Shown piece by piece: positions 4,647 to 62,430 of a DNA stretch of 64,000 bases. The stretch's first letter is position 1, and every line of letters begins with the position of its first letter. Source of the stretch: a virus (Duplodnaviria; Heunggongvirae; Uroviricota; Caudoviricetes); IMG/VR virus record IMGVR_UViG_2778261223_000007, positions 12,132-76,131 of that record, one strand, 5' to 3'. The position numbers and the translations under genes were made by a program. The notes beneath the pieces were generated by a model. It was given only the letters and a program-made list of their open reading frames with translations. It was not told the DNA's origin and did not search any database.

Positions 4647-4667
4647 AAATCACAAACTGAGCATACT
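4647..4667 (+). promoter_or_regulatory. candidate late promoter AAATCACA-AACTGAG-CATACT
   Basis: One of 8 copies of AAAT(C/A)ACA-N7-YAYNNT. The -10 ends 39 nt before the R start codon. Confidence 0.55.
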
Positions 4668-4705
4668 CTCCTTTGGTTCATTGCTTATGAAGGAGCTATG
4701 TTCGT

Positions 4706-5152
4706 ATGGCTGAAAATTTAAAGGCAAGAGATGGTAACCGCCTGTATAAGGCACAATTGCTTTCCTACTATTATTCACGCCGCGCTGAGTCGGCGATCGG
4801 CAAAGGTGCGCGTTTTGTTATCTCTAAGGCGTATTGGTGCAAATCTAGTCTGGTAACTGCTAATGGTGCAGGAGGCTGGAATATAGCGGACATTCCACTC
4901 GATTTTAAATTGAGTGACGCTCAACAGTTTGCTGTGTCCGATCTGATATTGTCCAGCGTGGATGGGATTATCACTATCAATGCAGCCTTCCCACAAGAAA
5001 GAATGCCGGATAACACGCCTTACGATTTTAACACGCTTGTGCTTGTTGATGCTGAGGAACGGGCTTTTGGTGTGCTTTGCACCCAGCAAGATACCCTCTA
5101 TAAAGGTAAACGTTACAGTATTCTCATGACAATCGAGCAAGTTGAGGGTTGA
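4706..5152 (+). CDS. R: tail-fibre-associated protein R
   Basis: 148-aa ORF immediately upstream of and overlapping the S start; position of P1 R. Confidence 0.5.
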   Translation: MAENLKARDGNRLYKAQLLSYYYSRRAESAIGKGARFVISKAYWCKSSLVTANGAGGWNIADIPLDFKLSDAQQFAVSDLILSSVDGIITINAAFPQERMPDNTPYDFNTLVLVDAEERAFGVLCTQQDTLYKGKRYSILMTIEQVEG

Positions 5153-5154
5153 TT

Positions 5155-8154
5155 ATGGGGGCTGATAAAACGAACAACATAATGACACTATCCTCTGGTG
5201 TCTCACAGCCTTTGCTTGCTGATGTTCAATATTTCGAACTCTATAGTAGTTCGGCTCTTAACAGAAAACTTAAAAATATTGTTTTGCCTGGCTTTTACTG
5301 TGGATTTGAACCAGTTCCCGGCACAGGGTTGAGTGTTCGTATAACTTCTGAAAACTCAGAAGGTAAAGGGGCTGCTTCAGTAGATGTAAATAATGTTCAG
5401 ATATCCGTTCAGCAAATAGAAGATGTGACTGTCTCGGTAAAGGCTGGGGCTACCAACATTATTGTGCTGGAAGCCAATTTTGAACATGGTGTAAAAACGA
5501 CACAGGTAGATAGCGCATCTTCTGTCAGTGCTGCAAGAATTTACGCGCGTACGGACAATACTATTGGGCAGAATCAAATTGAATTATGTCGAGTTATCGT
5601 GCCTAACGGCGCAACGGCTGTGACTAAAGAAATGATTGTGCTTAAATACCGGGTTAACCGTGCTGTTGGTGTCGAATTCTCTAATGAAATAAGCAGTACA
5701 GAAGAAAGAAAAGCGGCTACACCTCTGGCTGTCAAAACTCTCCATGATTTGGTTGATACAAAAGCTCCGCTCGATAGTCCGCATCTGTCAGGTACGCCGA
5801 CTTCGCCGACACCTGAACCCGGTACAAACAACACACAGATCGCAAATGCGGCCTTTGTCTATGCTGCTATAAATGCGCTTATCAATGGTGCTCCGGGAAC
5901 GATGGACACGCTGAAAGAAATAGCGGCTGCGATCAATAACGACCCGAATTTCAGCACAACTATCAACAATGCCCTGGCTCTTAAAGCTCCTTTGGCAAGC
6001 CCGGCGTTCACAGGTACGCCGACAGCACCTACGGCCTCACAAGGCACAAATAGCACGCAGATTGCAAATACAGCCTTTGTTAAGGCAGCTATAACGGCAC
6101 TTATCAACGGTGCGCCTGGCACACTGGATACGCTGAAAGAAATAGCGGCTGCGATCAATAACGACCCGAATTTCAGCACAACTATCAACAATGCCCTGGC
6201 TCTCAAAGCGCCTTTGGCAAGCCCTGCATTAACGGGTGTCCCTACTGCGCCGACCGCCGCACAGGGCACAAATAATACGCAGATTGCTACGACCGCTTAT
6301 GTAAGAGCTGCCATATCCGCATTGGTTGGTTCATCACCAGAAGCTCTTGATACCCTGAATGAGCTTGCCGCAGCACTTGGCAATGACCCGAACTTTGCGA
6401 CAACAATGACAAATGCGCTGGCAGGCAAACAGCCTCTGGATGCAACTTTAACCGCGCTCGCTGGCCTTGCGACTGGTGCAAACAAACTGCCTTATTTCAC
6501 CGGTAAGGATACGGTAGCGCAGACTGATTTAACGTCAGTCGGTCGCGATATTCTGGCTAAAACAAGCACACTGGCCGTTATCCAATACCTTGGTTTAAGA
6601 GAACTCGGTACCAGTGGTGAAAAGATCCCCCTGTTGAGTACGGCTAACACATGGAGTGCGCGCCAGACTTTCAATGGCGGGATCACCGGGGCGCTGACAG
6701 GGAACGCCGACACCGCGACGAAATTGAAAACAGCCATAAACATTAATGGCGTCAGGTTCGATGGTTCGGCTGACATTAATATCAATACTCTGGTATCGCG
6801 TGGTCGCGTAACGGCTCTGGGGGCGAATGCACAGGGGACATCCGGGATTCAGCTGTATGAGGCATACAACAATGGCTATCCTTCCCCCTATGGCAATGTG
6901 CTTCACCTTAAAGGTGCCACCGCTGCTGGCGAAGGTGAATTATTCATTGGCTGGAGTGGCTCGAGCGGTGACCATGCGCCCGTACATATCCGTTCGCGGC
7001 GTGATACTGATTCTGCCAACTGGTCTGAATGGGCACAGGTCTATACGTCAAAAGATTCAGTTCCCGGCGTTAATGCCAAAGGGAATCAGGATACCTCTGG
7101 TAATGCGGCTACAGCGACCAAATTGCAGACGGCGTGTACTATCAACGGTGTCTCGTTTGATGGTTCTAAAAACATTGAGCTAACGGCGGAAGATTTAAAT
7201 CTTGAGCAAACCGTAGAATTAGCCGCAGGAGCATTGCAGAAAAACCAGAACGGTGCAGATATTCCGAATAAAGATAAATTCATACAAAACACAGGGGCCT
7301 GTCGTGCATTTAGCGGTCAGACTGATATCGATGGTTCACAAGGTGAATGGTCGACAGTTGCATTTATCTCGTGGCTGGAGAATAACGGAGCTTTCCGACA
7401 TCCATACTGGATGTGTAAAGGGTCATGGTCCTATGCCAGAAACAGGGTTATTACGGATACCGGTTGTGGAAATATCTGCCTTGCCGGAGCCGTGATTGAG
7501 GTTATGGGAACCCGCGGCGCAATGACCATACGCGTTACCACGCCGAGCACGTCCAGCGGTGGCGGAATCACTAACGCTCAATTCACTTATATTAATCATG
7601 GTGATGCTTACGCTCCTGGCTGGCGACGAGACTACAACACGAAAAACCAGCAGCCTGCATTTGCTTTAGGGCAAACAGGACGCAGGGTCGCAAATGATAA
7701 AGCTGTTGGCTGGAACTGGAATAGCGGCGTTTATGATGCAGATATCAGTGGCGCATCGACATTAATCCTCCACTTTAATATGAATGCGGGGAGTTGCCCT
7801 GCTGTACAGTTCCGCGTGAATTACAGAAATGGCGGTATCTTTTATCGTTCAGCGCGTGATGGTTATGGCTTTGAAGCTAACTGGTCAGAGTTTTACACCA
7901 CAACACGCAAACCCTCTGCGGGAGATGTTGGTGCATATACGCAGGCAGAATGTAACTCAAGGTTTATTACAGGTATTCGCCTTGGCGGTCTGTCATCTGT
8001 TAAGACATGGAATGGTCCTGGCTGGTCTGACAGGTCAGGTTATGTCGTTACTGGTTCAGTTAACGGAAACCGTGATGAATTAATTGATACAACTCAGGCA
8101 AGGCCAATTCAGTATTGCATTAATGGAACGTGGTATAACGCGGGGAGTATTTAA
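5155..8154 (+). CDS. S: tail fibre protein S (constant part fused to the currently expressed variable part Sv)
   Basis: ATG 5155 with a GAGGG SD overlapping the R stop (the ORF track uses TTG 5149). N-terminus ADVQYFELYSSSALNRK resembles P1 S. Contains fibre collar repeats, and the ORF crosses the cix site at 6578-6603. Confidence 0.9.
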   Translation: MGADKTNNIMTLSSGVSQPLLADVQYFELYSSSALNRKLKNIVLPGFYCGFEPVPGTGLSVRITSENSEGKGAASVDVNNVQISVQQIEDVTVSVKAGATNIIVLEANFEHGVKTTQVDSASSVSAARIYARTDNTIGQNQIELCRVIVPNGATAVTKEMIVLKYRVNRAVGVEFSNEISSTEERKAATPLAVKTLHDLVDTKAPLDSPHLSGTPTSPTPEPGTNNTQIANAAFVYAAINALINGAPGTMDTLKEIAAAINNDPNFSTTINNALALKAPLASPAFTGTPTAPTASQGTNSTQIANTAFVKAAITALINGAPGTLDTLKEIAAAINNDPNFSTTINNALALKAPLASPALTGVPTAPTAAQGTNNTQIATTAYVRAAISALVGSSPEALDTLNELAAALGNDPNFATTMTNALAGKQPLDATLTALAGLATGANKLPYFTGKDTVAQTDLTSVGRDILAKTSTLAVIQYLGLRELGTSGEKIPLLSTANTWSARQTFNGGITGALTGNADTATKLKTAININGVRFDGSADININTLVSRGRVTALGANAQGTSGIQLYEAYNNGYPSPYGNVLHLKGATAAGEGELFIGWSGSSGDHAPVHIRSRRDTDSANWSEWAQVYTSKDSVPGVNAKGNQDTSGNAATATKLQTACTINGVSFDGSKNIELTAEDLNLEQTVELAAGALQKNQNGADIPNKDKFIQNTGACRAFSGQTDIDGSQGEWSTVAFISWLENNGAFRHPYWMCKGSWSYARNRVITDTGCGNICLAGAVIEVMGTRGAMTIRVTTPSTSSGGGITNAQFTYINHGDAYAPGWRRDYNTKNQQPAFALGQTGRRVANDKAVGWNWNSGVYDADISGASTLILHFNMNAGSCPAVQFRVNYRNGGIFYRSARDGYGFEANWSEFYTTTRKPSAGDVGAYTQAECNSRFITGIRLGGLSSVKTWNGPGWSDRSGYVVTGSVNGNRDELIDTTQARPIQYCINGTWYNAGSI
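5764..6429 (+). repeat. three tandem 222-bp (74-aa) tail-fibre repeats inside S
   Basis: Unit APLxSPxxTGxPTxPT..GTNxTQIAxTAFV..LINGAPGTLDTLKEIAAAINNDPNFSTTINNALALK. Units 1 and 2 are near-identical at DNA level over about 120 bp (5878 versus 6100, offset 222). Confidence 0.9.
6578..6603. other. cix recombination site inside S (TTATCCAATACCTTGGTTTAAGAGAA)
   Basis: 26-bp Hin/Gin/Cin-type crossover site, inverted relative to the copy at 10843-10868. Sequence homology between the two arms begins exactly here. Confidence 0.85.
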
Positions 8155-8156
8155 TT

Positions 8157-8690
8157 ATGATGCACTTAAAAAATATTACTGCTGGCAACCCTAAAACAAA
8201 AGAGCAATACCAGCTAACAAAGCAATTTAACATCAAATGGCTTTATTCAGATGATGGAAAAAACTGGTATGAGGAACAAAAGAATTTCCAGCCAGACACT
8301 TTGAAAATGGTCTATGACCATAACGGCGTTATTATTTGTATTGAAAAGGATGTTTCAGCAATTAATCCGGAAGGCGCAAGCGTCGTTGAATTACCTGATA
8401 TTACAGCAAATCGCCGGGCTGATATTTCGGGTAAATGGATGTTCAAAGATGGCGTAGTGATAAAGCGAACTTATACCGAGGAGGAACAGAGGCAGCAGGC
8501 AGAGAATGAAAAGCAAAGCCTGTTGCAACTTGTCAGGGATAAAACCCAGCTATGGGACTCACAGCTACGGCTGGGTATCATTTCCGACGAGAATAAACAA
8601 AAATTAACCGAGTGGATGCTCTATGCGCAGAAGGTCGAATCCACAGACACCTCCAGCCTGCCAGTAACGTTTCCAGAACAACCAGAATGA
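8157..8690 (+). CDS. U: tail fibre assembly chaperone U
   Basis: 177 aa. N-terminus [22 protein letters not shown] is paralogous to U' on the opposite strand. Confidence 0.8.
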   Translation: MMHLKNITAGNPKTKEQYQLTKQFNIKWLYSDDGKNWYEEQKNFQPDTLKMVYDHNGVIICIEKDVSAINPEGASVVELPDITANRRADISGKWMFKDGVVIKRTYTEEEQRQQAENEKQSLLQLVRDKTQLWDSQLRLGIISDENKQKLTEWMLYAQKVESTDTSSLPVTFPEQPE

Positions 8691-8693
8691 AAC

Positions 8694-8720
8694 AAGGCCC
8701 GCTATCGGGCCTTAATTTTT
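8694..8720. terminator. hairpin between convergent U and U'
   Basis: AAGGCCCG-CTAT-CGGGCCTT followed by AATTTTTA. Confidence 0.6.
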
Positions 8721-9249
8721 ATTCAGGCTTTTGTGGCCATTCAGGATTTGCCGTATCCACACGGCTGACCAGAACACTATAGCGTTCCCATGACTCCAGT
8801 CGTGCGCGTTCCTCATCCGTCGCCATATTCAGCCTGACAGCGCGTTCCAGTGGCTGAATAACGTTTTCTGCTTCGGAAAGTAACGCGGCCTTTTGTGATT
8901 CGGCCTGTTGTTGTTGCTCGTCTGCCGTATAAATCCGTTTAACCACAGCTCCGTCCTTAAACATCCACTTCCCTGAATCATCGGCACGACGATTGGCTGT
9001 TATATCTGGAATCTCAACGACGCTAAAGCCTTCGGGATTAAGCGTTGAGGCATCTTTGGTTATGGCAACAATAATATTATTTTCGTCGTATACAATCTTT
9101 ATGGTGTCGTCCTGAAAGTTATTTACTTCTTCATACCAGTTTTTACCGTCTTCGGACCATAACCAGATAACATCAAAATTCTTTGTTAGCTGATATTGTT
9201 CTTTCGTTTTAGGATTTCCAGACTTAATATTTTTTAAATGCTGCATCAT
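8719..9249 (-). CDS. alternative tail fibre assembly chaperone U'
   Basis: 176 aa, paralog of U ([23 protein letters not shown]); silent in this orientation. Confidence 0.8.
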
Positions 9250-10857
9250 TTACACCTGTGCGACGTTATACCATGTGCCATTGATGTATTTTTGTATTGG
9301 CCTGAAGATGGCTTCATCATCGCCATCTACTTCACCAATGATTCTTAATCCGGTAATTGCGTGTCCGGCTTTTTCATAACGACCACCACGCGCCATCAAT
9401 TGAACAACACGTGTGCCAAGTCGGACATCTCTCACATAGCGTGAGTCAAAATTGCCATAATTGCCGGGAATAACTTGCGCACCACAAAGCCAGTTACCGT
9501 TATTATCCATGTACGCCTGACCATCGGTGCCATTGGCTGTCCTTGAGTTATTAATCATGTAGATGCCAAATTGCTTGTTCCCCAGTCCACCTATCATGAA
9601 CTTTCGGTCGGCGTGATTCTGGCGAAGTAACGCCTGAGCGCTATCAGTGTTAACTATATTTTTCCCAAAGATAGCGTTGTTATCGCGCATCTGAATCCAC
9701 ATACCATTACTGCTGTTAATAGCAAAACGGTCTGAAAGTGTCTCCCCTGAAACATTAAGACCACGTCCCATCGAAACAGCGCCAGTAGCGTTATTAATCC
9801 ATAATGGCCTTAATCCGTTATAAGTCCCCATGTTGTCACCGGAGTTTGTCAACATGAAGTATGTATTTGAACCATCATTACGAATAAAGAATCCGTAATT
9901 ACCATAAGCAATACGTAGGCCGTTTGCTGATTTTGATATGACTTCGCCATTTACAATGGCATTGACAAGAACATACAAAGCATCCCATTTAAGATTCATC
10001 AGGTCTTTTGTTGTGGTACTTTGTTTGCTTCTCCATTTGAAATATTCATTGCCGTTGTCGCCTGTCTCAAACCACATGTATGAATCAGTATCGCTGTCGG
10101 CATCATTTTTAAAACCAATCTTCGCCCAGTCAGTATTCCGAATCCAGGCAAGGATTGAGTCGTTTTCAAAAGTAAGTCCACCGGACAAGGTATCGCCTGT
10201 CTTTTGAACCGCGTTATCAGCCTTGTTTACCGTTTCCTGTAGATTTAAATCTTCCGCCGTTAGCTCAATATTTTTAGAACCGTCAAACGAGACGCCGTTG
10301 ATAGTACATGCTATCTGCAATTTGGTCGCTGTAGCCGCATTACCAGAGGTGTCCTGATTCCCTTTAGCATTGACGCCGGGAACTGAATCTTTTGACGTAT
10401 AGATCTGTGCCCACTCGGACCATGCCGCAGCAGTGCTATCTCTTTTGGATCGAATGAAAGCAGGTGCATGAGCGCCATTTGTGCCACTCCAGCCAATGAA
10501 TAACTCACCTTCGCCAGCAGCGGTGGCACCTTTAAGGTGAAGCACATTGCCATAGGGGGAAGGGTAGCCATTGTTGTATGCCTCATACATCTGCAATCCA
10601 GTAGCAGCACCTTGCGTTGTACCGGTAAGCGCAGTAACGCGTCCTCTAGACGTAATTGTTGGTATCGAAATGTTCGTAGAACCATCGAACCTGACGCCAT
10701 TAATGTTTATGGCTGTTTTTAATTTCGTCGCGGTATCGGCGTTCCCTGTCAGCGCCCCGGTGATCCCGCCGTTGAAAGTCTGGCGTGCACTCCACGTGTT
10801 AGCCGTGCTCAACAGGGGGATCTTTTCACCGCTGGTACCGAGTTCTCTTAAACCAAG
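9250..10857 (-). CDS. alternative tail-fibre variable segment Sv' (no promoter or start of its own)
   Basis: Reading frame runs in frame up to the cix site. Its first roughly 200 aa parallel Sv (STANTWSARQTFNGGITGALTGNADTATKLKTAININGVRFDGS...). It would fuse to Sc after inversion. Confidence 0.85.
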   Translation of the reverse strand, partial: LGLRELGTSGEKIPLLSTANTWSARQTFNGGITGALTGNADTATKLKTAININGVRFDGSTNISIPTITSRGRVTALTGTTQGAATGLQMYEAYNNGYPSPYGNVLHLKGATAAGEGELFIGWSGTNGAHAPAFIRSKRDSTAAAWSEWAQIYTSKDSVPGVNAKGNQDTSGNAATATKLQIACTINGVSFDGSKNIELTAEDLNLQETVNKADNAVQKTGDTLSGGLTFENDSILAWIRNTDWAKIGFKNDADSDTDSYMWFETGDNGNEYFKWRSKQSTTTKDLMNLKWDALYVLVNAIVNGEVISKSANGLRIAYGNYGFFIRNDGSNTYFMLTNSGDNMGTYNGLRPLWINNATGAVSMGRGLNVSGETLSDRFAINSSNGMWIQMRDNNAIFGKNIVNTDSAQALLRQNHADRKFMIGGLGNKQFGIYMINNSRTANGTDGQAYMDNNGNWLCGAQVIPGNYGNFDSRYVRDVRLGTRVVQLMARGGRYEKAGHAITGLRIIGEVDGDDEAIFRPIQKYINGTWYNVAQV

Positions 10858-10868
10858 GTTTAGGATTG
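10843..10868. other. cix recombination site next to cin (TTCTCTTAAACCAAGGTTTAGGATTG)
   Basis: Inverted partner of 6578-6603; shares the core TTCTCTTAAACCAAGGT. Confidence 0.85.
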
Positions 10869-11420: not shown

Positions 11421-11423
11421 ATG

Positions 11424-11472: not shown

Positions 11473-11493
11473 AAATAACAAACTGACTAAGTT
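11473..11493 (+). promoter_or_regulatory. candidate late promoter AAATAACA-AACTGAC-TAAGTT (dar operon)
   Basis: Motif copy 33 nt upstream of the first dar-operon start codon. Confidence 0.5.
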
Positions 11494-11852: not shown

Positions 11853-12298
11853 TGGGTAACTTTGGAAATTATTTCATTTTTATCATGGCATTTGTTGCCA
11901 TCATTGACCGTTTCATTTTTCGTCGCAAGAGTGTTGAGATTTTGAGTATTGGTGACGCTGTAGTGAAAGAATCCGCTATAGCATTTCCTGTTTCGCTACG
12001 TGTTAAGCGAAGCTGGGTGAGCAATGCTCAAATCGAATATTGGTTGCAAGACCTGAAAAATCCATCTGTGGTTATTTCAGGGAAAACGCGACCAGTTGAC
12101 GCCTCAAAACGCGGTGAGAGAGAAGAGTATTTGCTCATCGATACGAAATATCTTGAGCCAACGAAGTGGGATCTGAAAGTCACATTGACTAACGGTAACT
12201 GCCGACTGAATCCGCTTTATCGCATTTTCCCTATCAATGACTGCATAGAGCGCCAATTTACGATCGAAAAGCGTGAAGGAGACTGGGATGTCAAATAA
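11852..12298 (+). CDS. membrane-anchored protein (LydD position)
   Basis: 148 aa with an N-terminal TM helix (NYFIFIMAFVAIIDRFIF); ATGA-type overlap with the upstream gene. Confidence 0.4.
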   Translation: MGNFGNYFIFIMAFVAIIDRFIFRRKSVEILSIGDAVVKESAIAFPVSLRVKRSWVSNAQIEYWLQDLKNPSVVISGKTRPVDASKRGEREEYLLIDTKYLEPTKWDLKVTLTNGNCRLNPLYRIFPINDCIERQFTIEKREGDWDVK

Positions 12299-12908
12299 AA
12301 ATAATTATGTTCTTCTTAATTATGATGAGTTAAACGAAAAGGGGCTGTCAAAACTCGTCAAAGAAATCAGCAAAGGTGGTTACAAGATAGCGAGGGTGAT
12401 CCCTGCAAGTAATGGCAGGAAGAAAGATGGGATCATGACGCGCACGTTTACCCTTATTGGTATTGATGAACAGACAATGGAAGTTCAGGTTAACGATACC
12501 GGTGATATATCTGGGATCAAACTGAATGGTAAAACAGTACCGTTCAAGCCAGTAAAAACAATGTCGGCTTTGGGGCAATCTCTTGCGGCTTTATTTAATC
12601 GTGGAGCAACTTCTTTCCAGAAGTCACTAGCTCGAAAACTTGCTCGTGCAGCAAAAAATATTGATGACGGAAATAAGAAGCGGCAGGGAGTTAAATCTAA
12701 CGCTCAGAAATTAGCTGAAGCGAAAGAATCACGTGATGCACTCCGTGAAGATATCGCTAATGCTAACGACAAACTGTCTAAACTCCAGAGCAAGTCAGAC
12801 AAAGTAATGCAAGATACGGGTAATGTTAAAGCTGCCTTGTCTCAGGAAGTAGCTAAGACACGTGCTCTTAAAGAAGAAATCGCGCGCCTGGAGGATGAGC
12901 ATGATTAA
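12288..12908 (+). CDS. hdf: Hdf-like Dar-system head protein
   Basis: ATG 12288 preceded by GAAGGAG (the ORF track starts at 12273). Coiled-coil C-terminus; directly upstream of darA. Confidence 0.5.
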   Translation: MSNKNNYVLLNYDELNEKGLSKLVKEISKGGYKIARVIPASNGRKKDGIMTRTFTLIGIDEQTMEVQVNDTGDISGIKLNGKTVPFKPVKTMSALGQSLAALFNRGATSFQKSLARKLARAAKNIDDGNKKRQGVKSNAQKLAEAKESRDALREDIANANDKLSKLQSKSDKVMQDTGNVKAALSQEVAKTRALKEEIARLEDEHD

Positions 12909-15256: not shown

Positions 15257-15277
15257 AAATCACACTCTTTTTACACT
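15257..15277 (+). promoter_or_regulatory. candidate late promoter AAATCACA-CTCTTTT-TACACT
   Basis: Motif copy 30 nt upstream of TTG 15307. Confidence 0.5.
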
Positions 15278-17762: not shown

Positions 17763-17783
17763 AAATCACATACTGATTATGCT
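17763..17783 (+). promoter_or_regulatory. candidate late promoter AAATCACA-TACTGAT-TATGCT
   Basis: Motif copy 33 nt upstream of the portal start codon. Confidence 0.55.
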
Positions 17784-23768: not shown

Positions 23769-23789
23769 ACTATGGGGAGTATGTGATTT
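23769..23789 (-). promoter_or_regulatory. candidate late promoter AAATCACA-TACTCCC-CATAGT (minus strand)
   Basis: Motif copy 36 nt upstream of the hydrolase start codon. Confidence 0.5.
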
Positions 23790-23812: not shown

Positions 23813-23833
23813 AAATAACATTCTCCATACCCT
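23813..23833 (+). promoter_or_regulatory. candidate late promoter AAATAACA-TTCTCCA-TACCCT
   Basis: Motif copy 52 nt upstream of darB; divergent from the previous one. Confidence 0.45.
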
Positions 23834-34693: not shown

Positions 34694-34867
34694 AGGGTTT
34701 TCGTCATGGTTAGCGACTTTGCGGCGGTTTAGAAACCGACCATTAAAGTAAATGCAAACGATGATCTGATGATGGTAGCGGCCTAAGAAGCCAGACGCCA
34801 CGGGGTATGAGTCGTCCCCCGTCAAAAAATCGACCGCAGAGTGTCCCCGTCTGTGTATTAGGGAACG

Positions 34868-38374: not shown

Positions 38375-38450
38375 ATCATCTTTTTGCCAGTCTATACAGT
38401 TTTAACATTCTCATTATCATCCCCTCGGTCATTTCCTGCCCGGGGGATTA

Positions 38451-38843
38451 ATGGAACAAATCAGCAGCGCAGAAATTGCGGATATCATGATCAGGGCTGA
38501 CTGCTATCTGACAGTCACTGAAATTACCACTCTCGCCAAAGAAAAATACCCTCATCTCCATGTTTCACGAGTAAGTGTAACTAACATCATTCGTCATTTT
38601 GTTCGTTCAAGCAGGGCAATCTGTGAGCTTGATGATCGTGTGTATCCACGAAAATACTGGTTGCATGGCCTGAACGGATATCAGTTCAAGGTGCGTGGGC
38701 GAACCCCGGAATACGGCAGTTTACTGGTTAAAAACTGTAGCAGGAAATCAGTCGAACAGGCGCGAAAAGAGCAACGAGAGCTGGTGGACATGGCGAATAA
38801 GCTGTGGAATGCCGCCGTTAAAAAGCGTGGTGTTGCTTTATGA
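38451..38843 (+). CDS. lpa: late promoter activator Lpa-like
   Basis: 130 aa immediately upstream of and overlapping pacA, preceded by the operator pair. Positional call. Confidence 0.5.
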   Translation: MEQISSAEIADIMIRADCYLTVTEITTLAKEKYPHLHVSRVSVTNIIRHFVRSSRAICELDDRVYPRKYWLHGLNGYQFKVRGRTPEYGSLLVKNCSRKSVEQARKEQRELVDMANKLWNAAVKKRGVAL

Positions 38844-48749: not shown

Positions 48750-48901
48750 TACATTGAAAAGGCATAGTTTGTGAAAGCGGGGTTTGTAAGCAACGCCGCT
48801 GGCGGCAAGGTCTACGTTCACCTTGTCTCGCTCTTCCTGGCTTTTAGCTGCTATATTTCGATCTGACACAAGAAACCTCCAGGAGTTAGTGGATCAGGCA
48901 C

Positions 48902-54973: not shown

Positions 54974-55218
54974 TGTGGTGGCTCCTGCTTTTCTGCCTTT
55001 AATACCATGCGAGAACCATCATCCAGCTCCCAATTAATTTCACCGCCTTCAGCCATGACTAGATGCCAAACGAGTTGTGCGGCCTCGTTGGTTACATCAC
55101 GACCGCGATCATTGCCGACACGACGTTTTGTTCCATCCCCTAAGTCACGCATTTTTGCCAACACGATGGTTTTTGATAGCGGTGAAAAACCAAGCTGTAG
55201 TCGTGCGGTATTACTCAC
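54970..55218 (-). CDS. hypothetical protein
   Basis: 82 aa from GTG 55218, 6 nt after GGAGG (the ORF track starts at 55251). Confidence 0.4.
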   Translation of the reverse strand: MSNTARLQLGFSPLSKTIVLAKMRDLGDGTKRRVGNDRGRDVTNEAAQLVWHLVMAEGGEINWELDDGSRMVLKAEKQEPPQ

Positions 55219-55703
55219 TGTTTGCCTCCTTTGCGAAGCTGTTCCGCCCATTCTTCAAGGGATTTCTCCGCATATTCACCGGACAGGCCATCAATCGGGT
55301 GCGGTTCATTAGCCAACTCTTCTTTCGCTGACAGAATCATGCGCGTAACGTCGAAAACTTCACGTAAAGACTTATTGATAAATCCGTGGTTGAAAGCAGC
55401 AGCAAGACGGCTTGCGGTATAGTTAATCCCCTCGTTGCGAGCCGCCGCACGAATTTCAGCCAGAAAAGCATCGGTGGCTGGAGTTTCGCTGTGGTGCAGG
55501 GCATCGTTGATAATCATTGCAGCAACTCCGGCCTGACCTGCATCCGTGACCGACACATGCTCAAGAGTTACAGCCATTGCATGTTTCAGCCCAGCATTCT
55601 CCGCCGCCAGCGCAGCACACGCTTTCTCAAGTCGGGAAATTTCCGTTACATACTCAGCGTTACGCTCTGCCAGTTGTGCGGGCGTTAAACCTTCAGACTT
55701 CAT
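55215..55703 (-). CDS. hypothetical early protein
   Basis: 162 aa, helical. Confidence 0.45.
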   Translation of the reverse strand: MKSEGLTPAQLAERNAEYVTEISRLEKACAALAAENAGLKHAMAVTLEHVSVTDAGQAGVAAMIINDALHHSETPATDAFLAEIRAAARNEGINYTASRLAAAFNHGFINKSLREVFDVTRMILSAKEELANEPHPIDGLSGEYAEKSLEEWAEQLRKGGKQ

Positions 55704-56010
55704 ACACTCTCCTTTCGAAATAAACGTACTGATTAATCATGCCTAGGGGCATTTCGAGTTTTTCCGCGATCTCACGGCGGGGAACACCACACCGATGAAG
55801 CTGCCGTGCCAGTTCTATATCGCCCTGCCGGTATTTGGCTGACGGGTGAAAGTCTCCTTTCAGAATCATGCAGATCCGCAGTTGCCGCGCTTTGGTTCTG
55901 ACAGCACTACCGGTACGCCCGATCAGCCTCCCAATACTCTCGACTGTCATAGTCCCGGCGCACTGGCGGAGTATCATGATTTCTGCCCTTCCCCATCCCC
56001 GCCAGCTCAC
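55693..56010 (-). CDS. HTH protein
   Basis: 105 aa with two HTH-like segments (VESIGRLIGRTGSAVRTKARQL; REIAEKLEMPLGMINQYV). Confidence 0.45.
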   Translation of the reverse strand: MSWRGWGRAEIMILRQCAGTMTVESIGRLIGRTGSAVRTKARQLRICMILKGDFHPSAKYRQGDIELARQLHRCGVPRREIAEKLEMPLGMINQYVYFERRVYEV

Positions 56011-56618
56011 GCAGAACTCCTTCTAACCAAAAGCACGCCATCTTCAGAAACAACGTTGCAGGACTTCAGGTAATTCATTGCCTCTTTCGGTAATGGATTC
56101 TTTGGATCGGCGTTTGCCAGGGATTTCGATAACCTCATGATAAATTTGATCATTACCTTCTGGCGGAGCTTGTGCTCATGAGATAAAGACAGGTAATAGG
56201 AAATGGTATGGGCTAAACGCTCACGAAGCTGTTCTGTGCCGTGATATACAGCAGCGATATCACACAGTGCATTGACCAGTTCCCGGTAAATATGCGGAGC
56301 AACCTGGCATTCAATGTTGGTTGGTGACTCATAAATTACAGTCAGCCCCAGCTTTTCAGCCAGCGCGTGCTCTGCACGAGCACCAATCGATTCCTCCCAT
56401 CGATTGAGCAAGTAGATCGCATCAGCAGAACGCACCATTGCCAGGCAAATATCCATGTATTCACTCTGACAAAGGCCACCAGGTAACACAGCTGGATTCA
56501 GAACGATATGCCCTTCAGCCATCAGCTCGCTCGCTTTCGCATTAAACGCAGCACGGTTGTAATCTGGATAACCAGTCATCGGCCCCGCGATGTAAATTTT
56601 CAAAACACGTTTCACCAT
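56007..56618 (-). CDS. DUF4406 (nucleoside 2-deoxyribosyltransferase-like) domain fused to an Ea22-type C-terminal segment
   Basis: KIYIAGPMTGYPDYNRAAFN...NPA...LLNRWEESIGARAEHALAEKLGL is the DUF4406 pattern. ATG 56618 overlaps the upstream stop (the ORF track starts at 56645). Confidence 0.65.
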   Translation of the reverse strand: MVKRVLKIYIAGPMTGYPDYNRAAFNAKASELMAEGHIVLNPAVLPGGLCQSEYMDICLAMVRSADAIYLLNRWEESIGARAEHALAEKLGLTVIYESPTNIECQVAPHIYRELVNALCDIAAVYHGTEQLRERLAHTISYYLSLSHEHKLRQKVMIKFIMRLSKSLANADPKNPLPKEAMNYLKSCNVVSEDGVLLVRRSSA

Positions 56619-56770
56619 CAAAATTTCCCCAAAATCGTGACGCAAAACATAAGCACTGCGAAAAGCTCAATACCAAGCTCAAGTAGCGCCAACGCCCCGA
56701 AAAACAACACATAGAACAGGCCAATCTCATTCACAGATGGCTGGTGGATCGCACTTAAAGCTATAAGCAT
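56618..56770 (-). CDS. 50-aa hydrophobic peptide, first ORF of the leftward early operon
   Basis: MLIALSAIHQPSVNEIGLFYVLFFGALALLELGIELFAVLMFCVTILGKF. GGAGGA SD upstream. Below the ORF-track cutoff. Confidence 0.4.
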   Translation of the reverse strand: MLIALSAIHQPSVNEIGLFYVLFFGALALLELGIELFAVLMFCVTILGKF

Positions 56771-56810
56771 CATGTCCTCCAAACAGTTATCAGGAATGAT
56801 ATTAATGTTT

Positions 56811-56843
56811 TGTGTTAGAAAATCAATTTTGAATATCTAATCA
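56811..56843. promoter_or_regulatory. bipartite operator-like pair TGTGTTAGAAAATCAATTTT / GAATATCTAATCA between divergent operons
   Basis: Left half has the exact core and the right half is a TCTAATC variant. P1 ref is likewise controlled by a bipartite C1 operator. Confidence 0.55.
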
Positions 56844-56890
56844 TTTTGATCAATCATAGAAAAATCGCTGAAAAGTAAGAGGCAGCCATC

Positions 56891-57469
56891 ATGCAGAAAC
56901 AGAGCTATTGGGAGAAACAGAGACAAAAAGCCATGCAAAAATTGGCTGACCCAGCCTGGCGAGAGGAACAAAGGGCAAAGTGCCTTCAACAAGCTCAACG
57001 CCAGCAGCAGCGAGCGAGAGAAAAAGCCGCATCGCCTGAATATCGGCAAAAGAAAATTGAAAAAGCAAAGCAATATGAACAGCGGAGAAAAGATAAAGCT
57101 GTATCCGCTCCGTCCAAAAAAACACGCACGTCACGCGGCCTGAAAGGCAGATCACTCACAGCCGATGAACGCCGGATACAGACCGCTATCGGTGCTCTCC
57201 CCTGCATTGCCTGCCATATTCACGGGCAACATAGCCCAGTGGTATCCCTGCACCATATCTTCGGGAGAACGGCAGAGAACGCGCATAAATATGTCCTCCC
57301 TTTGTGTAAATGGCACCACCAGTACGCAGCGCCAGCCGAGGTCCGAGAACAATATCCCTGGCTGGTCCCTGTTCATGCTGACGGAAAAATAGGCGGAAAA
57401 GCAGATTTCATGCGGCACAATGCCGATGAAATGACGTTGTATCAGATGGCGATTGAATTGATAAATTAG
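56891..57469 (+). CDS. ref: Ref, RecA-dependent HNH endonuclease
   Basis: 192 aa. ADPAWREEQ..SRGLKGRSLTADERRIQTAIGALPCIACHIHG..VSLHHI..LPLCKWHHQYAAPAEVREQYPWLVPVHADG closely parallels P1 Ref from memory. Confidence 0.85.
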   Translation: MQKQSYWEKQRQKAMQKLADPAWREEQRAKCLQQAQRQQQRAREKAASPEYRQKKIEKAKQYEQRRKDKAVSAPSKKTRTSRGLKGRSLTADERRIQTAIGALPCIACHIHGQHSPVVSLHHIFGRTAENAHKYVLPLCKWHHQYAAPAEVREQYPWLVPVHADGKIGGKADFMRHNADEMTLYQMAIELIN

Positions 57470-57480
57470 TTTTCTAACAT
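57463..57480 (+). promoter_or_regulatory. operator-like site AAATTAGTTTTCTAACAT, followed by promoter TTGAAT..TACATT
   Basis: Exact core overlapping the ref stop; heads the second immunity-I-like module. Confidence 0.6.
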
Positions 57481-57714
57481 TTTAAGTTGAATTGTAAATT
57501 TCTCCGATGTACATTCACTACCGATTGGCACACCGGTCAACTTTTTGAGACAAACTGTTTAGTTTTTCGTATTATTGCCGCCGCTATACCTATGGCGGTG
57601 CAATATAGGTGGCTGAAAAGCCCCCGTTGACTCACGGTGTTCCAGCCTTTATTGCGCCGCCACCAGACCGTGGAACAGTCGATGGCGGCTCCGAAAGCAA
57701 GGAGTCACTACACT

Positions 57715-57804
57715 ATGAACAGCTACTGTCTTTTCCCATCACTCGTTGTCCGCCACTCACGCGATAATCTGCATTCTTTACTCGCGCTGGGGGTGTCAAA
57801 ATGA
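57715..57804 (+). CDS. 29-codon leader ORF (weak call)
   Basis: AAGGAG SD upstream of the ATG; its stop overlaps the next ATG (ATGA). Confidence 0.25.
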   Translation: MNSYCLFPSLVVRHSRDNLHSLLALGVSK

Positions 57805-57968
57805 CCGTTCGTTACCTCAACTTTCAAATCCAGAACATCACTGGCGGTTGCTATGACTGGTTTGTCACTCTCGGAAAAGAAGTGATCACCGGGAAGCTGG
57901 ATGAAGTGAAAACTAAAGCAATGGCCTACGCCTGCAAGCAAGCCCGGAAGAAATCCGCCAAAGCATAA
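57801..57968 (+). CDS. 55-aa basic protein
   Basis: MTVRYLNFQIQNITGGCYDWFVTLGKEVITGKLDEVKTKAMAYACKQARKKSAKA. Translationally coupled to the leader ORF. Below the ORF-track cutoff. Confidence 0.4.
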   Translation: MTVRYLNFQIQNITGGCYDWFVTLGKEVITGKLDEVKTKAMAYACKQARKKSAKA

Positions 57969-58073
57969 AATACTGACTGTTGCGCCCTGGCATTATCGTG
58001 GGGTATATTTCTACGGCACCTTAGAAAAACGGGTGCCGGGATTGGAACCCCGGATAATGTCAAAGGCGACACA

Positions 58074-58094
58074 GACGCCGAAAGCGTCTTTTTT
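58074..58094 (+). terminator. intrinsic terminator
   Basis: GACGC-CGAAA-GCGTC followed by T6. Confidence 0.65.
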
Positions 58095-58109
58095 GTGTCA
58101 TGCCATCGC

Positions 58110-58275
58110 ACAGCCATACGTAGCGTTTAGCTCAGAGATCAATGGTAGTGCTGGCTGGGCTGCCGAAAGGCAGGCCGGTTCCCTTTGACGCCGGTAGTTC
58201 CAACCCAGTCAGTGCTACCGCCATTGAGATTGGAACCTCACGCGGTAGCTCCTTAACTTAGTCAAAGGAGGCTGC
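58110..58275 (+). ncRNA. candidate c4-type RNA region with tRNA-like 5' sequence
   Basis: GCGTTTAGCTCAGAG (tRNA D-arm-like), a CTGCC-GAAA-GGCAG hairpin, and CTCCTT..AAGGAG pairing that sequesters the icd SD. Boundaries unknown. Confidence 0.25.
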
Positions 58276-58279
58276 CAAT

Positions 58280-58495
58280 ATGGCTACTATCCCTACCCCA
58301 ACTCATTCTGAATTTATCTGGCGTTTCTATTCCTGCCAAAAACACCTGTATATCTGCGTCATGGCTGCTACCGAAGCAGAGGCGCGCTCATACCTTCCCG
58401 AAGAACCCTGCATTTTTGCTGCTCGCTTCACTCTTGATGCGATGGAGATCCTCAATTACTGGAATCTGCCGATGAACTGCGTGGAGGCGCACTGA
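58280..58495 (+). CDS. icd: Icd-like cell-division inhibitor, second copy
   Basis: 71 aa. SEFIWRFYSCQKH..AATEAEARSYLP; the stop overlaps the ant start. Confidence 0.65.
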   Translation: MATIPTPTHSEFIWRFYSCQKHLYICVMAATEAEARSYLPEEPCIFAARFTLDAMEILNYWNLPMNCVEAH

Positions 58496-59421
58496 TGAAT
58501 CTGTCCATCTCTCAAAAAGCGACAATGACCAGCATTGAGATCGCGGAACTGGTAGGTAAGCGCCCTGATAACGTTAAACGCACCATTGAACACCTGGCGG
58601 AACGGGGCGTAATATCTTTTCCTCAAATTGAGGAAAAGCCCACCGCAGGCCGCCCGGCGAGCTATTACGTCTTTGAAGGCGAACAAGGCAAGCGTGACAG
58701 TATCATTGTCGTCGCACAGCTTTCTCCCGAATTTACCGCCCGGCTGGTGGACCGCTGGCGCGAACTGGAGAATGCCCGGGTACAGTTAAAATCAAAAGCC
58801 GAAATCCTGGCTGAAATGGCGCAAATGCATCTTGAGCATGAACGCCGGATCAACGCCGTTAATGCCCAGGTAGCCGAAGTATCGGCACAAGTGTCCAAAG
58901 TCGCTGAAACCGTCGAGCAAATCAAGAAAGGCAATATTCCGGAAGGCTACATTGGCTACCGCCAGCTGGCGGCGAAATGTGGCCTGACTGAAGCCAAATG
59001 CCGAAACCTGGTTAACGCTTACCGGATTCCCACCGATACGCATGAGTTTTTAACTCCCGATGGTTTGCTTGCGCAACGCTCCATTGTGGCCCTGGCCCCC
59101 TTCCGGAAAGCCTTTAAGCAGGTGATGTCGGAGGCAGAACCACGCAATAAACGCTGGTATCATCCAAAGATGGGGATGTTTCAGGCAATCCACCATCCTG
59201 TGCCTGAAAGTCCAAAGGCAAACCTGTCGTTGCATACCGCCAGAGAGAGGATTAAAACAGGCTATGCAATCGTATGCCGTCGAGCATCCTGGCCTGAAGG
59301 TGTATGGGTGTGGCCCGAAGGTGGATCACGAAAGCACTGGCGCACTATCCGGGATGGGAAAATCCATGCGATTGATTTAGCTCCAGAGGATGTTGTTGCT
59401 ACGGACTGGATTGTTAGTTAA
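58495..59421 (+). CDS. ant: antirepressor, second copy, with a fused C-terminal DUF2829-like domain
   Basis: 308 aa. Rha signature MTSIEIAELVGKRPDNVKRTIE; C-terminus CRRASWPEGVW...DVVATDWIVS. Confidence 0.75.
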   Translation: MNLSISQKATMTSIEIAELVGKRPDNVKRTIEHLAERGVISFPQIEEKPTAGRPASYYVFEGEQGKRDSIIVVAQLSPEFTARLVDRWRELENARVQLKSKAEILAEMAQMHLEHERRINAVNAQVAEVSAQVSKVAETVEQIKKGNIPEGYIGYRQLAAKCGLTEAKCRNLVNAYRIPTDTHEFLTPDGLLAQRSIVALAPFRKAFKQVMSEAEPRNKRWYHPKMGMFQAIHHPVPESPKANLSLHTARERIKTGYAIVCRRASWPEGVWVWPEGGSRKHWRTIRDGKIHAIDLAPEDVVATDWIVS

Positions 59422-59429
59422 TTACTGTT

Positions 59430-59451
59430 GCCCCGGCCTGTCCGGGGCTTT
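59430..59451 (+). terminator. terminator hairpin
   Basis: GCCCCGG-CCTGT-CCGGGGC followed by TTTA. Sequence-related to the terminator at 23224. Confidence 0.6.
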
Positions 59452-59480
59452 AACTACTAAATAACCGGATTCTCCGCACG

Positions 59481-59765
59481 ATGAAGAAAATAGATTTCAC
59501 TTACTCTGCTGCCACAATCCAGCGACGTTTCAGTCTCATAAGGGAAGTGGAACTATCAAAAAACTGCTATCAAATTCTACTGGATGAAGAGTTTTCACTG
59601 ATGGTTATAGCAGAAAAATTGGCTATGCCGAATGACCGGCACAAGGTCATAGCCAGCCTGGATCTGGTGACAAACAGATACTGGGAATACGAGGAACTAC
59701 TTGAAGTTGGCTTGATACGCGAGATGATAGAACAGGCTGTTCCCCTCCACTTACAGCAACCATAA
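59481..59765 (+). CDS. hypothetical protein (AT-rich island)
   Basis: 94 aa with no motif recognised. Confidence 0.45.
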   Translation: MKKIDFTYSAATIQRRFSLIREVELSKNCYQILLDEEFSLMVIAEKLAMPNDRHKVIASLDLVTNRYWEYEELLEVGLIREMIEQAVPLHLQQP

Positions 59766-59901
59766 TTGAAAGATCTTAACGATAGTCTGCCACGAATAGT
59801 TACTTCCACTGCCTAAAGTTATTTAATTGCATTACAAAGTGTAAATTAGTAACATTAGAATCTCACACAGCACTATAACTATATGTTTTTTATGTAAAAG
59901 G

Positions 59902-60261
59902 ATGATAATCGTGGCTACTAAAATTAAACTTGAAAACCCTCAAACTGGCGAATCAATCACCGGTTTTTATGGTTTTTCCTGGACTACATTCTTGTTTGGT
60001 GCTTTTCCAGCTTTGTTCAGGAAAGACTTTATAACTTTTATTGGGGTATTTGTAGTGATGCTGATACTGGCATTCCTCACAGCCGGAATTGGCCCGTGGA
60101 TTGCCTCATTTATCTGGGCGTTCATGTATAATAAATATTTCACCGTAAATAAGATAAAACAAGGCTTCATTTTTGCTGGTTCTCACACAGAAAATGAGTT
60201 GGCTGCTAGCAAGCTAGGATTGTCATTAAATCAAAACAACTGCAAAACTATTACCGAGTAA
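59902..60261 (+). CDS. two-TM membrane protein, DUF2628-like (alternative GTG start 59911)
   Basis: GFYGFSWTTFLFGAFPALFRKDF...FLTAGIGPWIASFIWAFMY. Confidence 0.5.
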   Translation: MIIVATKIKLENPQTGESITGFYGFSWTTFLFGAFPALFRKDFITFIGVFVVMLILAFLTAGIGPWIASFIWAFMYNKYFTVNKIKQGFIFAGSHTENELAASKLGLSLNQNNCKTITE

Positions 60262-60300
60262 AGCCAAAAAGCAGGCTTAATAGTAAGCCTGCTATGTCAA

Positions 60301-61134
60301 TCACGAATCTCTCTGACAATTCAGAAACATAAACGCCCGCTTGTCTGTTAAATCCGTAACATAATACTCTCTCATGCCTGTAGGTTTTATTCTACGAGCA
60401 TATACAAACTTATGAACTGGTTGTTTTTCCCCATAACTTACATCAGTCCTAAATTCATCAACCACGCTACCATCTTTTTCAGTTTCCTTTCTCACTAGCT
60501 GATTTTCTAATACAGGCTTTGATTCGTCCATGCCACTAAAAGCATCCTGACCTGTGCTGTTGCCTCGGTTTCCGCGTGGCAAATCCCATGAAAAATAAGT
60601 GCCATAGTCAGTAATCACACGATCCCATGTTCCGGAATCCCCCATATAGTTAGAACGCTCCCCCTTGTAAGTTACAGCCACCTTACAGGCATACGTTTCA
60701 CCATTATTTTTTTTATCATGTCCAGCCATGCTTGCAGGAGTTGCAGGGGAATTATGAATAGATGCGCTTACATCATCTTGCGTTAATTTCTCAACTGGAG
60801 CAAATTCATATATGGGTGTGCCGAGGCTATTTAAATATAACTTATATCTAACCCTAAGCGCACTTCCATCTGAGAATTCATACGTTCCCAGGCATTGGAG
60901 CTTATTGTTTTCTCTTATCTCATTGATCTGATTATAAGCATCAATTACAGAGATTGCTTCCTGCTCGTCCTTCAGCAGTTCATTATAATCATCGATTAAC
61001 ATCTGCCTAGTTTTAGGGGAATTGCAGTCAATTTTGCTAAAATCATAAGCAAAGGTGAGTGTGGGAACAAAAAGAGCAACAACAGTAGCTAGTATTGTTG
61101 AGGAAAATCTTTTTCCATTTTTTATAAAAAACAT
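60301..61134 (-). CDS. secreted protein of unknown function
   Basis: 277 aa from ATG 61134, 9 nt after GGAG (the ORF track starts at 61212). Signal peptide MFFIKNGKRFSSTILATVVALFVPTLTFA|YD. Confidence 0.55.
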   Translation of the reverse strand: MFFIKNGKRFSSTILATVVALFVPTLTFAYDFSKIDCNSPKTRQMLIDDYNELLKDEQEAISVIDAYNQINEIRENNKLQCLGTYEFSDGSALRVRYKLYLNSLGTPIYEFAPVEKLTQDDVSASIHNSPATPASMAGHDKKNNGETYACKVAVTYKGERSNYMGDSGTWDRVITDYGTYFSWDLPRGNRGNSTGQDAFSGMDESKPVLENQLVRKETEKDGSVVDEFRTDVSYGEKQPVHKFVYARRIKPTGMREYYVTDLTDKRAFMFLNCQRDS

Positions 61135-61322
61135 TTCATTAACTCCATACCTTACCATCTTAGCCGCGAGCGCGGTCCCTAAAACCATTAACTTCACTGC
61201 ACCGTCCTTCATGCAATCAAAATGACTTTTATGTTATAAAAATAATCAGCCAAATCAACATGATTTAGGCCAAATTTCTGTCAAAAAATAAAATCCACAA
61301 AAAGTGGTTGACACTATTTTGG

Positions 61323-61343
61323 AAATCACAAACTGCACATAAT
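61323..61343 (+). promoter_or_regulatory. candidate late promoter AAATCACA-AACTGCA-CATAAT
   Basis: Motif copy, unusually 137 nt upstream of the next ATG, with a terminator in between. Confidence 0.5.
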
Positions 61344-61427
61344 CCATCGCGCTAACGGCTCCCGTTGAAGGTTCTTTTGACGATTAACTTTCAGCCGAAG
61401 CGCGGTAGGGAGTCATAACGCCAAAGC

Positions 61428-61452
61428 AGGCCGCCATGTGCGGCCTTTTTTT
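61428..61452 (+). terminator. intrinsic terminator inside the leader
   Basis: AGGCCGC-CATGT-GCGGCCT followed by T7; ends 28 nt before ATG 61480. Confidence 0.8.
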
Positions 61453-61479
61453 GTATCCGTCATCCGTGGAGGAAGGACA

Positions 61480-62133
61480 ATGGAAAAGATCGCAATATTC
61501 AGCCTGACCACCAGCAAGCCTCAAATGCTCACTGCAATACTGAAAGACGGTGCTCTCATTATTAACGAAGTAAAACCCCTTCCCGCGTCAGCATTGGAGC
61601 AAAAGCAAAAAATTCCTCCAGCTATAGCAGCCCTGCGGAAAAGCAAATTTAAGGTACTGGTAGACGAAATTACGCCAACGATCTCCGCTGGCACCGGAGC
61701 AAGCCAGGTGACTCTCAAGACCCGTCATGCCGATGGCAGAGCAGCAATCATCGTCGGGATGGAAAGATACAGAGAGTTAAAACTCCAGAAGCTATTATCC
61801 CTGCCGCAAAATAACAAAGGTGCTTTCGAAATCCCTGACTCCATCGTTGACACCGAATACAACGGTAACGGAGAAGAAGTCTACCGGGTGAACTGGCAGG
61901 ATATCAGGCCGGAGCATATTTTGATGATCCTGTGTTGCTACGCGACCGTATACCACAATGTTGCCAGTGCGGATTACGTAGAGCAGATGACCGGTACAGT
62001 CGAGAAAGAGCAAAAAACAGGCATACTCGCTTCGTTCCTGTCCATTATTGGGCATGAAAAAGTTAAAGCAGGCACCTCCCAGCCAAAGTCACTGACTGGG
62101 AAAGAAGTTGATGAAGATACCGTGATACTTTGA
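61480..62133 (+). CDS. hypothetical late protein
   Basis: 217 aa from ATG 61480, which follows GGAGGAAGG. The ORF-track GTG 61438 would read through the terminator hairpin. Confidence 0.55.
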   Translation: MEKIAIFSLTTSKPQMLTAILKDGALIINEVKPLPASALEQKQKIPPAIAALRKSKFKVLVDEITPTISAGTGASQVTLKTRHADGRAAIIVGMERYRELKLQKLLSLPQNNKGAFEIPDSIVDTEYNGNGEEVYRVNWQDIRPEHILMILCCYATVYHNVASADYVEQMTGTVEKEQKTGILASFLSIIGHEKVKAGTSQPKSLTGKEVDEDTVIL

Positions 62134-62268
62134 TCACATTAGTAGCTTTGTTAACTCCCTCAATACCAGGTAGAAGAGTAACAAAAATATTGACGCCAGT
62201 ATTTGCGTGGTCAATGAAGCGTTCATAAACAGATCAATTAGCATTAATAATTCGAAGATAACATCCAT
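62134..62268 (-). CDS. 44-aa hydrophobic peptide
   Basis: MDVIFELLMLIDLFMNASLTTQILASIFLLLFYLVLRELTKLLM. GGAGTG SD upstream. Below the ORF-track cutoff. Confidence 0.35.
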   Translation of the reverse strand: MDVIFELLMLIDLFMNASLTTQILASIFLLLFYLVLRELTKLLM

Positions 62269-62409
62269 GTCATTCACTCCGTTTAATTTTTAATCTAATG
62301 CCAGCAAATGAAGCTGGCCCCCGCATAAAGATTAATGAAAGTCACTTGTCACCAGTGAGGGGATTTATGAACCACATCCCCCTGAACTGGTGGCCTGTCT
62401 GTTTCTCGC

Positions 62410-62430
62410 ATTTCACACCCTGCATACAGT
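62410..62430 (+). promoter_or_regulatory. candidate late promoter ATTTCACA-CCCTGCA-TACAGT
   Basis: Variant motif copy 32 nt upstream of ATG 62462. Confidence 0.45.

Follow-up and report, generated by a model that had tools for sequence, protein, structure and literature searches.

Eight copies of a 21-bp unit, placed before late genes in a 64,000-nucleotide stretch of a caudoviral genome (IMG/VR record IMGVR_UViG_2778261223_000007, positions 12,132 to 76,131; this whole stretch is called the window, and coordinates given without accession refer to it), very probably serve a plasmid prophage of the D6 type as its late promoters. They would belong to the type of promoter that depends on the late activator Lpa, with a distinct, non-palindromic upstream element. 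The window and Escherichia phage D6 (MF356679), a P1-like plasmid prophage and relative of P1, are about 99% identical, and the window reads in the reverse direction of the D6 record. This reading is carried by the motif itself, its statistics and its position before genes, by its conservation in relatives, and by the presence in the window of an Lpa protein and its fold class. Promoters of the Lpa type are expected in a relative of P1, so that the feature is real but largely expected. No promoter features are annotated in the D6 GenBank records, and the D6-type consensus is not described in the searchable open-access literature, an earlier description in the D6 genome paper being possible.

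A 21-bp unit before late genes

The original prediction, made from the window alone, listed eight copies of AAAT(C/A)ACA-N7-YAYNNT. All eight sites were found where it had placed them (Table 1), each facing a late gene located 29-136 nt downstream. Six of them match the literal pattern AAATMACA-N7-YAYNNT exactly (4647, 15257, 17763, 23769 on the minus strand, 23813 and 61323), against a mean of 0.10 matches and a maximum of 1 in dinucleotide shuffles. The remaining two deviate by one or two bases and are clear members when scored with a position weight matrix (PWM): the hexamer at 11473, TAAGTT, has the form TAnnnT instead of YAY, and the box at 62410, ATTTCACA, carries two mismatches. The longer form AAATCACAWACTG, i.e., AAATCACA(A/T)ACTG, had been attributed to four copies, but only three are exact, the copy at 11473 being one mismatch away. 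The distance to the start codon, proposed to be 30-39 nt in six of the eight cases, was found to be 29-38 nt in six of eight when measured from the D6 gene starts mapped onto the window, which is only a one-base difference in counting. Seven of the eight sites are intergenic, and the one before gene 26 overlaps only orf76, an open reading frame of 27 codons.

Table 1. Probable late promoters of the window, the presumed activator gene and related features (sites are written as box-spacer-hexamer; distance is from the end of the -10 hexamer to the start codon unless otherwise indicated)
Feature	Coordinates	Strand	Sequence or description	Distance (nt)	Remarks
Promoter before R (start 4706; R-S-U tail-fibre operon)	4647..4667	+	AAATCACA-AACTGAG-CATACT	38	Counterpart by position, P1 LPs
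Promoter before lydA (start 11526; lysis/dar operon)	11473..11493	+	AAATAACA-AACTGAC-TAAGTT	32	Counterpart by position, P1 LPdar
Promoter before ddrB-like gene (start 15307)	15257..15277	+	AAATCACA-CTCTTTT-TACACT	29	
Promoter before portal gene prt (start 17816; prt-pro operon)	17763..17783	+	AAATCACA-TACTGAT-TATGCT	32	Counterpart by position, P1 LPpro
Promoter before peptidoglycan hydrolase gene (D6 orf16, start 23733 minus)	23769..23789	-	AAATCACA-TACTCCC-CATAGT	35	
Promoter before darB (start 23885)	23813..23833	+	AAATAACA-TTCTCCA-TACCCT	51	
Promoter before mat (start 61480)	61323..61343	+	AAATCACA-AACTGCA-CATAAT	136	
Promoter before gene 26 (start 62462; 26-25 operon)	62410..62430	+	ATTTCACA-CCCTGCA-TACAGT	31	Counterpart by position, P1 LP26
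Weak candidate ninth site before lpa	38400..38420	+	TTTTAACA-TTCTCAT-TATCAT	30	10.5 bits
lpa, presumed cognate activator	38451..38843	+	130 aa		PF25716
P1-type promoter in D6-type genome	62329-62349	-	ACAAGTGACTTTCATTAATCT, i.e., ACAAGTGACTT-TCAT-TAATCT	about 60 (promoter to orf77)	22.3 bits
orf77	62134-62268	-	44-aa hydrophobic conserved open reading frame		phrog_38362 (unknown function)
D6-type site before holin-like lydC in P1	AF234172 31571-31591	-	AAATCACAAAGTACATACCGT	38 (to lydC)	22.4 bits

A PWM built from the six exact sites only was scanned over the entire 91-kb D6 genome with a cut-off of at least 8 bits, a whole-genome search that the original prediction had proposed. It returned 13 hits, 12 of which face a gene 24-136 nt downstream and 11 of which lie between annotated genes, in a genome where the non-coding share is only 10.5%. 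Four of the 12 sites, which precede pmgB (27.1 bits), gene 7, upfC and the major capsid gene 23, are in the part of D6 that the window does not cover. The D6 targets are thus R, lydA, ddrB, prt, the peptidoglycan hydrolase gene, darB, mat, 26, pmgB, 7, upfC and 23, all of them morphogenesis, lysis or virion-packaged Dar genes, and seven of the 12 sites occupy the positions of the annotated P1 promoters LPs, LPdar, LPpro, LPmat, LP26, LP23 and LPsit. The same scan placed no site before repL, ref, the immunity genes or the plasmid-maintenance genes.

With a PWM made from the 12 D6 sites, the eight sites of the window score 19-27.5 bits and the next match only 10.5 bits, while Markov shuffles give 0.65 hits at 14 bits or more. 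Weaker PWM matches at 12764, 2371, 44284, 30008 and 32299 (minus) lie within genes or antisense to them and were treated as chance. The 8-mer box by itself is no signal, because it is not over-represented when up to one mismatch is allowed (70 matches versus 77.9 expected). The signal is the composite of the box, the fixed spacing, the -10 hexamer and the position before genes.

The unit has a fixed layout of 8+7+6 bp. A 12-bp asymmetric element with the consensus AAATnACAnACT, covering approximately -27 to -16, is located upstream of a -10 hexamer TAnnnT at -12 to -7. The 12 D6 sites share the invariant positions A1, T4, A6, C7, A8 and T12, together with A2 and T6 of the hexamer, which correspond to -11 and -7, the most critical bases for -10 recognition by sigma-70. 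Among 33 D6-type sites collected from D6 and its relatives, T6 of the hexamer is invariant and A2 is absent only in a low-scoring Pantoea site before pmgB. The original prediction saw no -35 hexamer, and this was borne out: the best match to TTGACA at a spacing of 16-18 nt averages about 2.25 of 6 bases versus 2.46 at random positions, and a sigma-70 promoter scan predicted no promoter at any of the six sites between 4400 and 24300. A TGn extended -10 and a -35 hexamer were both ruled out as parts of the unit, the former being absent and the latter no better than random, and so was a hidden palindrome in the element, since its dyad complementarity (0.34) is about random.

The motif is also conserved in more distant phage-plasmids. 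A tblastn search with D6 Lpa recovered homologs at 95-100% identity in D6-like plasmids, 42-43% in a Pantoea plasmid (CP134736), 36-37% in a Citrobacter plasmid (CP115618) and about 31% in the P1 group. The Pantoea plasmid carries AAATTACA-N7-TAYNNT before the GH104 endolysin gene, lydA, R, pmgB, the capsid gene, pacA, pro and mat. In the Citrobacter plasmid, the motif reads AAA[T/G/A][C/T]ACA-N7-TAYNNT and precedes lydA, ddrB, gene 7, a PAAR gene, bplB, pmgB, R, the capsid gene and mat. Both plasmids contain more hits of the D6 PWM than expected (21 versus 7.6 and 15 versus 6.7, respectively), and the intergenic DNA of neither can be aligned with that of D6. Individual sites can be followed as well: the ddrB site at 15257 has an orthologous site before the Citrobacter ddrB gene, the hydrolase site at 23769 a counterpart before the Pantoea GH104 gene, and the darB site at 23813 an orthologous site (AAATAACATACTCCACACCCT) before darB in contig L073. 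The hydrolase and darB promoters (23769 minus and 23813 plus) form a divergent pair that recurs in contig L074, and the divergent endolysin/darB pair is kept in contigs whose Lpa is 52-55% identical. The gene 26 site at 62410 is invariant across four D6-like plasmids. A locus search with a three-sequence Lpa alignment yielded four genome loci and 53 viral contigs, and a D6-type site was found before pacA in about 30 viral contigs.

Comparison with P1 and the presumed activator Lpa

The GenBank annotation of P1 describes 11 late promoters as a 9-bp '-22 region', 4 bp and a -10 hexamer with no -35. When extracted with their flanks, these promoters give the consensus ACAAGTGACTT-N4-TAnAAT. The original prediction had recognized in the window the architecture of the P1 Lpa-dependent promoters, and the layout does agree: in both phages there is a -10 without a -35, an element covering approximately -27 to -16, a position before the late morphogenesis and lysis operons at orthologous places, and the gene of a cognate activator of the Lpa family (PF25716) adjoining pacA. 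The sequence and the symmetry of the element are different. The D6 element is AAATnACAnACT (box AAATCACAnACT), whereas that of P1 is ACAAGTGACTT, and the 9-bp inverted repeat AAGTGACTT that defines the P1-type promoter is absent from the D6 sites. The D6 sites, which agree with the P1 late promoters in every architectural feature except the sequence and symmetry of the box, are a variant and not plain members of that class. The two boxes can be aligned either by the -10 hexamer or by their similar 5' halves. Anchored on the -10, the consensus 21-mers are AAATnACAnACTnCnTAnnnT for the D6 type (33 sites) and ACAAGTGACTTnnnnTAnAAT for the P1 type (14 sites); aligned by the 5' halves (AAATnAC versus AAGTGAC), the distance between box and -10 is 2 bp greater in the D6 type than in the P1 type.

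The matrices do not cross over. The D6 PWM gives 12 hits in P1 versus 9.6 expected, and the P1 PWM gives seven hits in D6 versus 7.9 expected, none of them at late operons; neither is enriched, which indicates, at the level of sequence, that there are two promoter/activator dialects among P1-like phage-plasmids. Cronobacter phage JK004, whose Lpa groups with that of P1, has P1-type boxes (ACAAGTGACTT-N4-TAnAAT) before R, the capsid gene, mat, gene 26 and pacA, and no D6-type box was found in the scanned 47-kb half of its genome. Two Lpa clades are thus recognized, P1 and JK004 with the P1-type box versus D6 and the Pantoea and Citrobacter plasmids with the D6-type box, and box type follows Lpa clade across the five genomes compared.

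The protein encoded at 38451-38843, proposed to be Lpa-like in the original prediction, is indeed a member of the PF25716 family (BPP1_LPA, E = 5e-57) and of phrog_1704 (Lpa-like), and the D6 record annotates it as 'late gene transcriptional activator, similar to P1 lpa'. More than 100 plasmid records encode an Lpa at least 95% identical to that of D6, the D6 type being common in Escherichia coli, Salmonella and Shigella. In an AlphaFold model based on 11 homologs (mean predicted local distance difference test, pLDDT, 84.7), three helices are accompanied by a beta-hairpin wing and by a long helix at the C terminus, a predicted winged helix-turn-helix fold. The best fold matches of the model are DNA-binding winged-helix domains of Fur, PadR/LmrR, MecI and forkhead proteins; no solved structure of any Lpa relative was found. 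The D6 and P1 proteins are 31% identical, and the predicted recognition helix (residues 40-52) differs consistently by clade (SVTNIIRHFVRS versus DVYLRLKAIAVS).

According to the mechanism that we propose, the sigma-70 holoenzyme of the host RNA polymerase would read the -10, and on its own it would recognize these promoters poorly. Lpa, an early phage protein with a putative winged-helix fold, would bind the element at -27 to -16 and replace the missing -35 contact, probably together with the host protein SspA as in P1. The tail-fibre, lysis/dar, head, endolysin, darB, mat and baseplate operons would then be switched on late in lytic growth. The dependence of transcription on Lpa and host SspA is known for P1 only, and Lpa is the only known late activator of the P1-like phage group (PMC10695390). 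The Francisella MglA-SspA-PigR complex is another system in which a protein of the SspA family bridges RNA polymerase and a DNA-bound activator (PMC1891329). It shares with the proposed scheme the co-activator layout, i.e., an activator on the DNA that acts via SspA associated with RNA polymerase, but its activator belongs to an unrelated family and serves a host virulence regulon, while the role of SspA in D6 would be taken over from P1. The late promoters served by Ogr/Delta in P2/P4 and by C in Mu also have a weak or absent -35 and an upstream site for a phage activator, and they also precede late morphogenesis and lysis operons. Those activators are zinc-finger or helix-turn-helix proteins, of families unrelated to Lpa, and they bind dyad sites further upstream (Ogr at about -55, Mu C at about -30 to -55).

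Alternative readings of the element

Several observations weigh against the proposal that the eight sites are Lpa-dependent late promoters. The P1 element is a palindrome (complementarity 0.80), whereas the D6 element (0.34) has no dyad symmetry, and thus the binding mode of Lpa may differ, e.g., as a monomer or in an asymmetric arrangement. The genes pacA and pacB lack a D6-type site in the window, in contrast to those of P1 and of the Pantoea and Citrobacter plasmids. D6-type sites precede lydC in P1 and P7, which have a P1-type Lpa, and this would mean either that the specificities overlap or that another factor is involved. The E-values of the Lpa fold search are weak (6e-3 at best). Finally, the binding of Lpa, the role of SspA, transcription start sites about 7 nt past the hexamer and the late timing are what we infer by transferring the mechanism from P1.

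The first alternative is that another late regulator, for instance Mat or an uncharacterized protein present in both phage types, reads the element, and that D6 Lpa acts elsewhere or indirectly. The apparent selection on the lydC sites of P1 and P7 and the non-palindromic nature of the D6-type element, which is unlike the known Lpa site, would both fit such a regulator. We nevertheless regard it as quite improbable, given that D6 would be left with essentially no P1-type boxes for its own Lpa (the seven hits mentioned above are no more than expected, with a single exception described below), that box type tracks Lpa clade in the five genomes, and that no late activator other than Lpa is known in this phage group.

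According to a second alternative, for which we see even less room, the sites are ordinary constitutive or early sigma-70 promoters, and the box is a repressor operator or a DNA-bending element similar to an UP element. The -10 hexamers are certainly of the sigma-70 type, the 5' end of the box is A-rich, and a look-alike site is located before the early gene lpa. Ordinary promoters would not be expected to lack both a -35 and a TGn extended -10, nor to be placed before late genes only and never before repL, ref, immunity or plasmid-maintenance genes. Moreover, the box is unlike the C1 operators annotated in P1, and its spacing to the -10 is as strictly fixed as in the activator-dependent promoters of P1. 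As for chance matches or a functionless by-product of sequence shared by recombination, a reading in line with the 8-mer alone not being enriched, its probability is negligible, because the composite pattern has six matches versus 0.10 expected, the PWM separates the sites from the background, they are almost only intergenic and face the downstream gene, and the motif is kept in the Pantoea and Citrobacter plasmids amid flanks that cannot be aligned.

If the sites are the Lpa-dependent promoters that we propose, they provide a late-transcription map for D6-type phage-plasmids, with eight promoters in the window and 12 in D6. The Lpa family would then appear to have at least two DNA specificities on one promoter layout, a pair provided by nature in which to study how Lpa and SspA substitute for the recognition of a -35. 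Possible uses are a better promoter annotation and orthogonal late-expression parts.

Promoters of the other dialect and accompanying features

The exception in D6, a genome otherwise without P1-type boxes, is a near-perfect P1-type site at 62329-62349 on the minus strand, about 60 nt before orf77 and divergent from gene 26. Its score was reached in none of 300 null genomes, and four D6-like plasmids (87-100% identity) with varying flanks carry the site unchanged. The reading frame of orf77 stays open despite indels. No DNA homology to P1 extends past the box in this region of D6. Transcription from this site would, in addition, proceed into the 3' end of mat in the antisense direction.

The converse case is the D6-type site before lydC in P1, the score of which was reached in one of 300 null genomes. 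The aligned site of P7 (AF503408, approximately 34700-34730) is AAATAACAATCTGAATAGGTT, and it differs from that of P1 at eight positions, all of them degenerate in the motif and none invariant; by a hand calculation, the chance of such a placement is C(11,8)/C(21,8), about 8e-4. The lydA site at 11473 aligns with both of these lydC sites.

It is tempting to suppose that in each dialect group a single promoter of the other dialect is retained on purpose before a small membrane protein, as a superinfection trap (abortive infection or exclusion) or for cross-talk. An orphan promoter of this kind would respond to the late activator brought in by a superinfecting phage of the opposite type or, alternatively, would mediate cross-talk when both plasmids occupy one cell. 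Both orphans are improbable by chance and conserved amid varying flanks, and orf77 is open, all of which is consistent with this idea, but we consider it unlikely. Simpler readings remain, i.e., recombination relics near cin/C-segment and gene 26, or partly overlapping Lpa specificities. The keeping of one other-dialect promoter per phage type suggests in any case a testable link between competing phage-plasmids.

A further site that touches on the two dialects is located in the Pantoea plasmid CP134736, itself of the D6 dialect, at 48784-48804 (minus). It reads AGAAGTTACTTTGCAT, which agrees with P1 LPdar at each of the initial 16 nt of that promoter (14.3 bits). The site falls within a coding region, on the opposite strand, and has no good -10 hexamer; either another cross-dialect relic or chance could account for it.

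The weak candidate site before lpa has the box AAATAACA in many close relatives (approximately 20 bits), and in relatives of 52-67% identity the hexamer is retained and the box is degenerate. It could serve in the autoregulation of Lpa or could simply be the early promoter of lpa. An inverted TTAGA/TCTAA repeat upstream of this site resembles a C1 operator. Downstream, the start of pacA (38840) overlaps the stop codon of lpa, and there is no D6-type site between or within lpa and pacA. In the window genome, lpa and the terminase genes appear to share a transcript. The P1 genome, in which LPpac is one of the Lpa-dependent promoters, and the Pantoea, Citrobacter and JK004 genomes have a late promoter ahead of pacA.

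Concerning the source genome, the invertible C-segment of the window (6580-10866, tail-fibre S/U variants) has the orientation opposite to that of the D6 GenBank record, and a megablast comparison left approximately 470 bp at 54975-55446 without counterpart in D6. One stretch of the window is 100% identical to the Salmonella plasmid pYU39_89.

The mat promoter stands apart by its long leader (61344-61479), which has at its end a GC-rich hairpin and then a run of seven T (61429-61452), about 27 nt before the ATG and just before the ribosome-binding site. An Rfam search of positions 61000-62600, covering this leader and the orf77 region, gave nothing credible. A promoter approximately 129-140 nt before mat is also found in the Pantoea and Citrobacter plasmids and in JK004, all of which keep the long leader with a terminator-like hairpin, absent in P1. 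This hairpin could be an attenuator or the source of a short late RNA.

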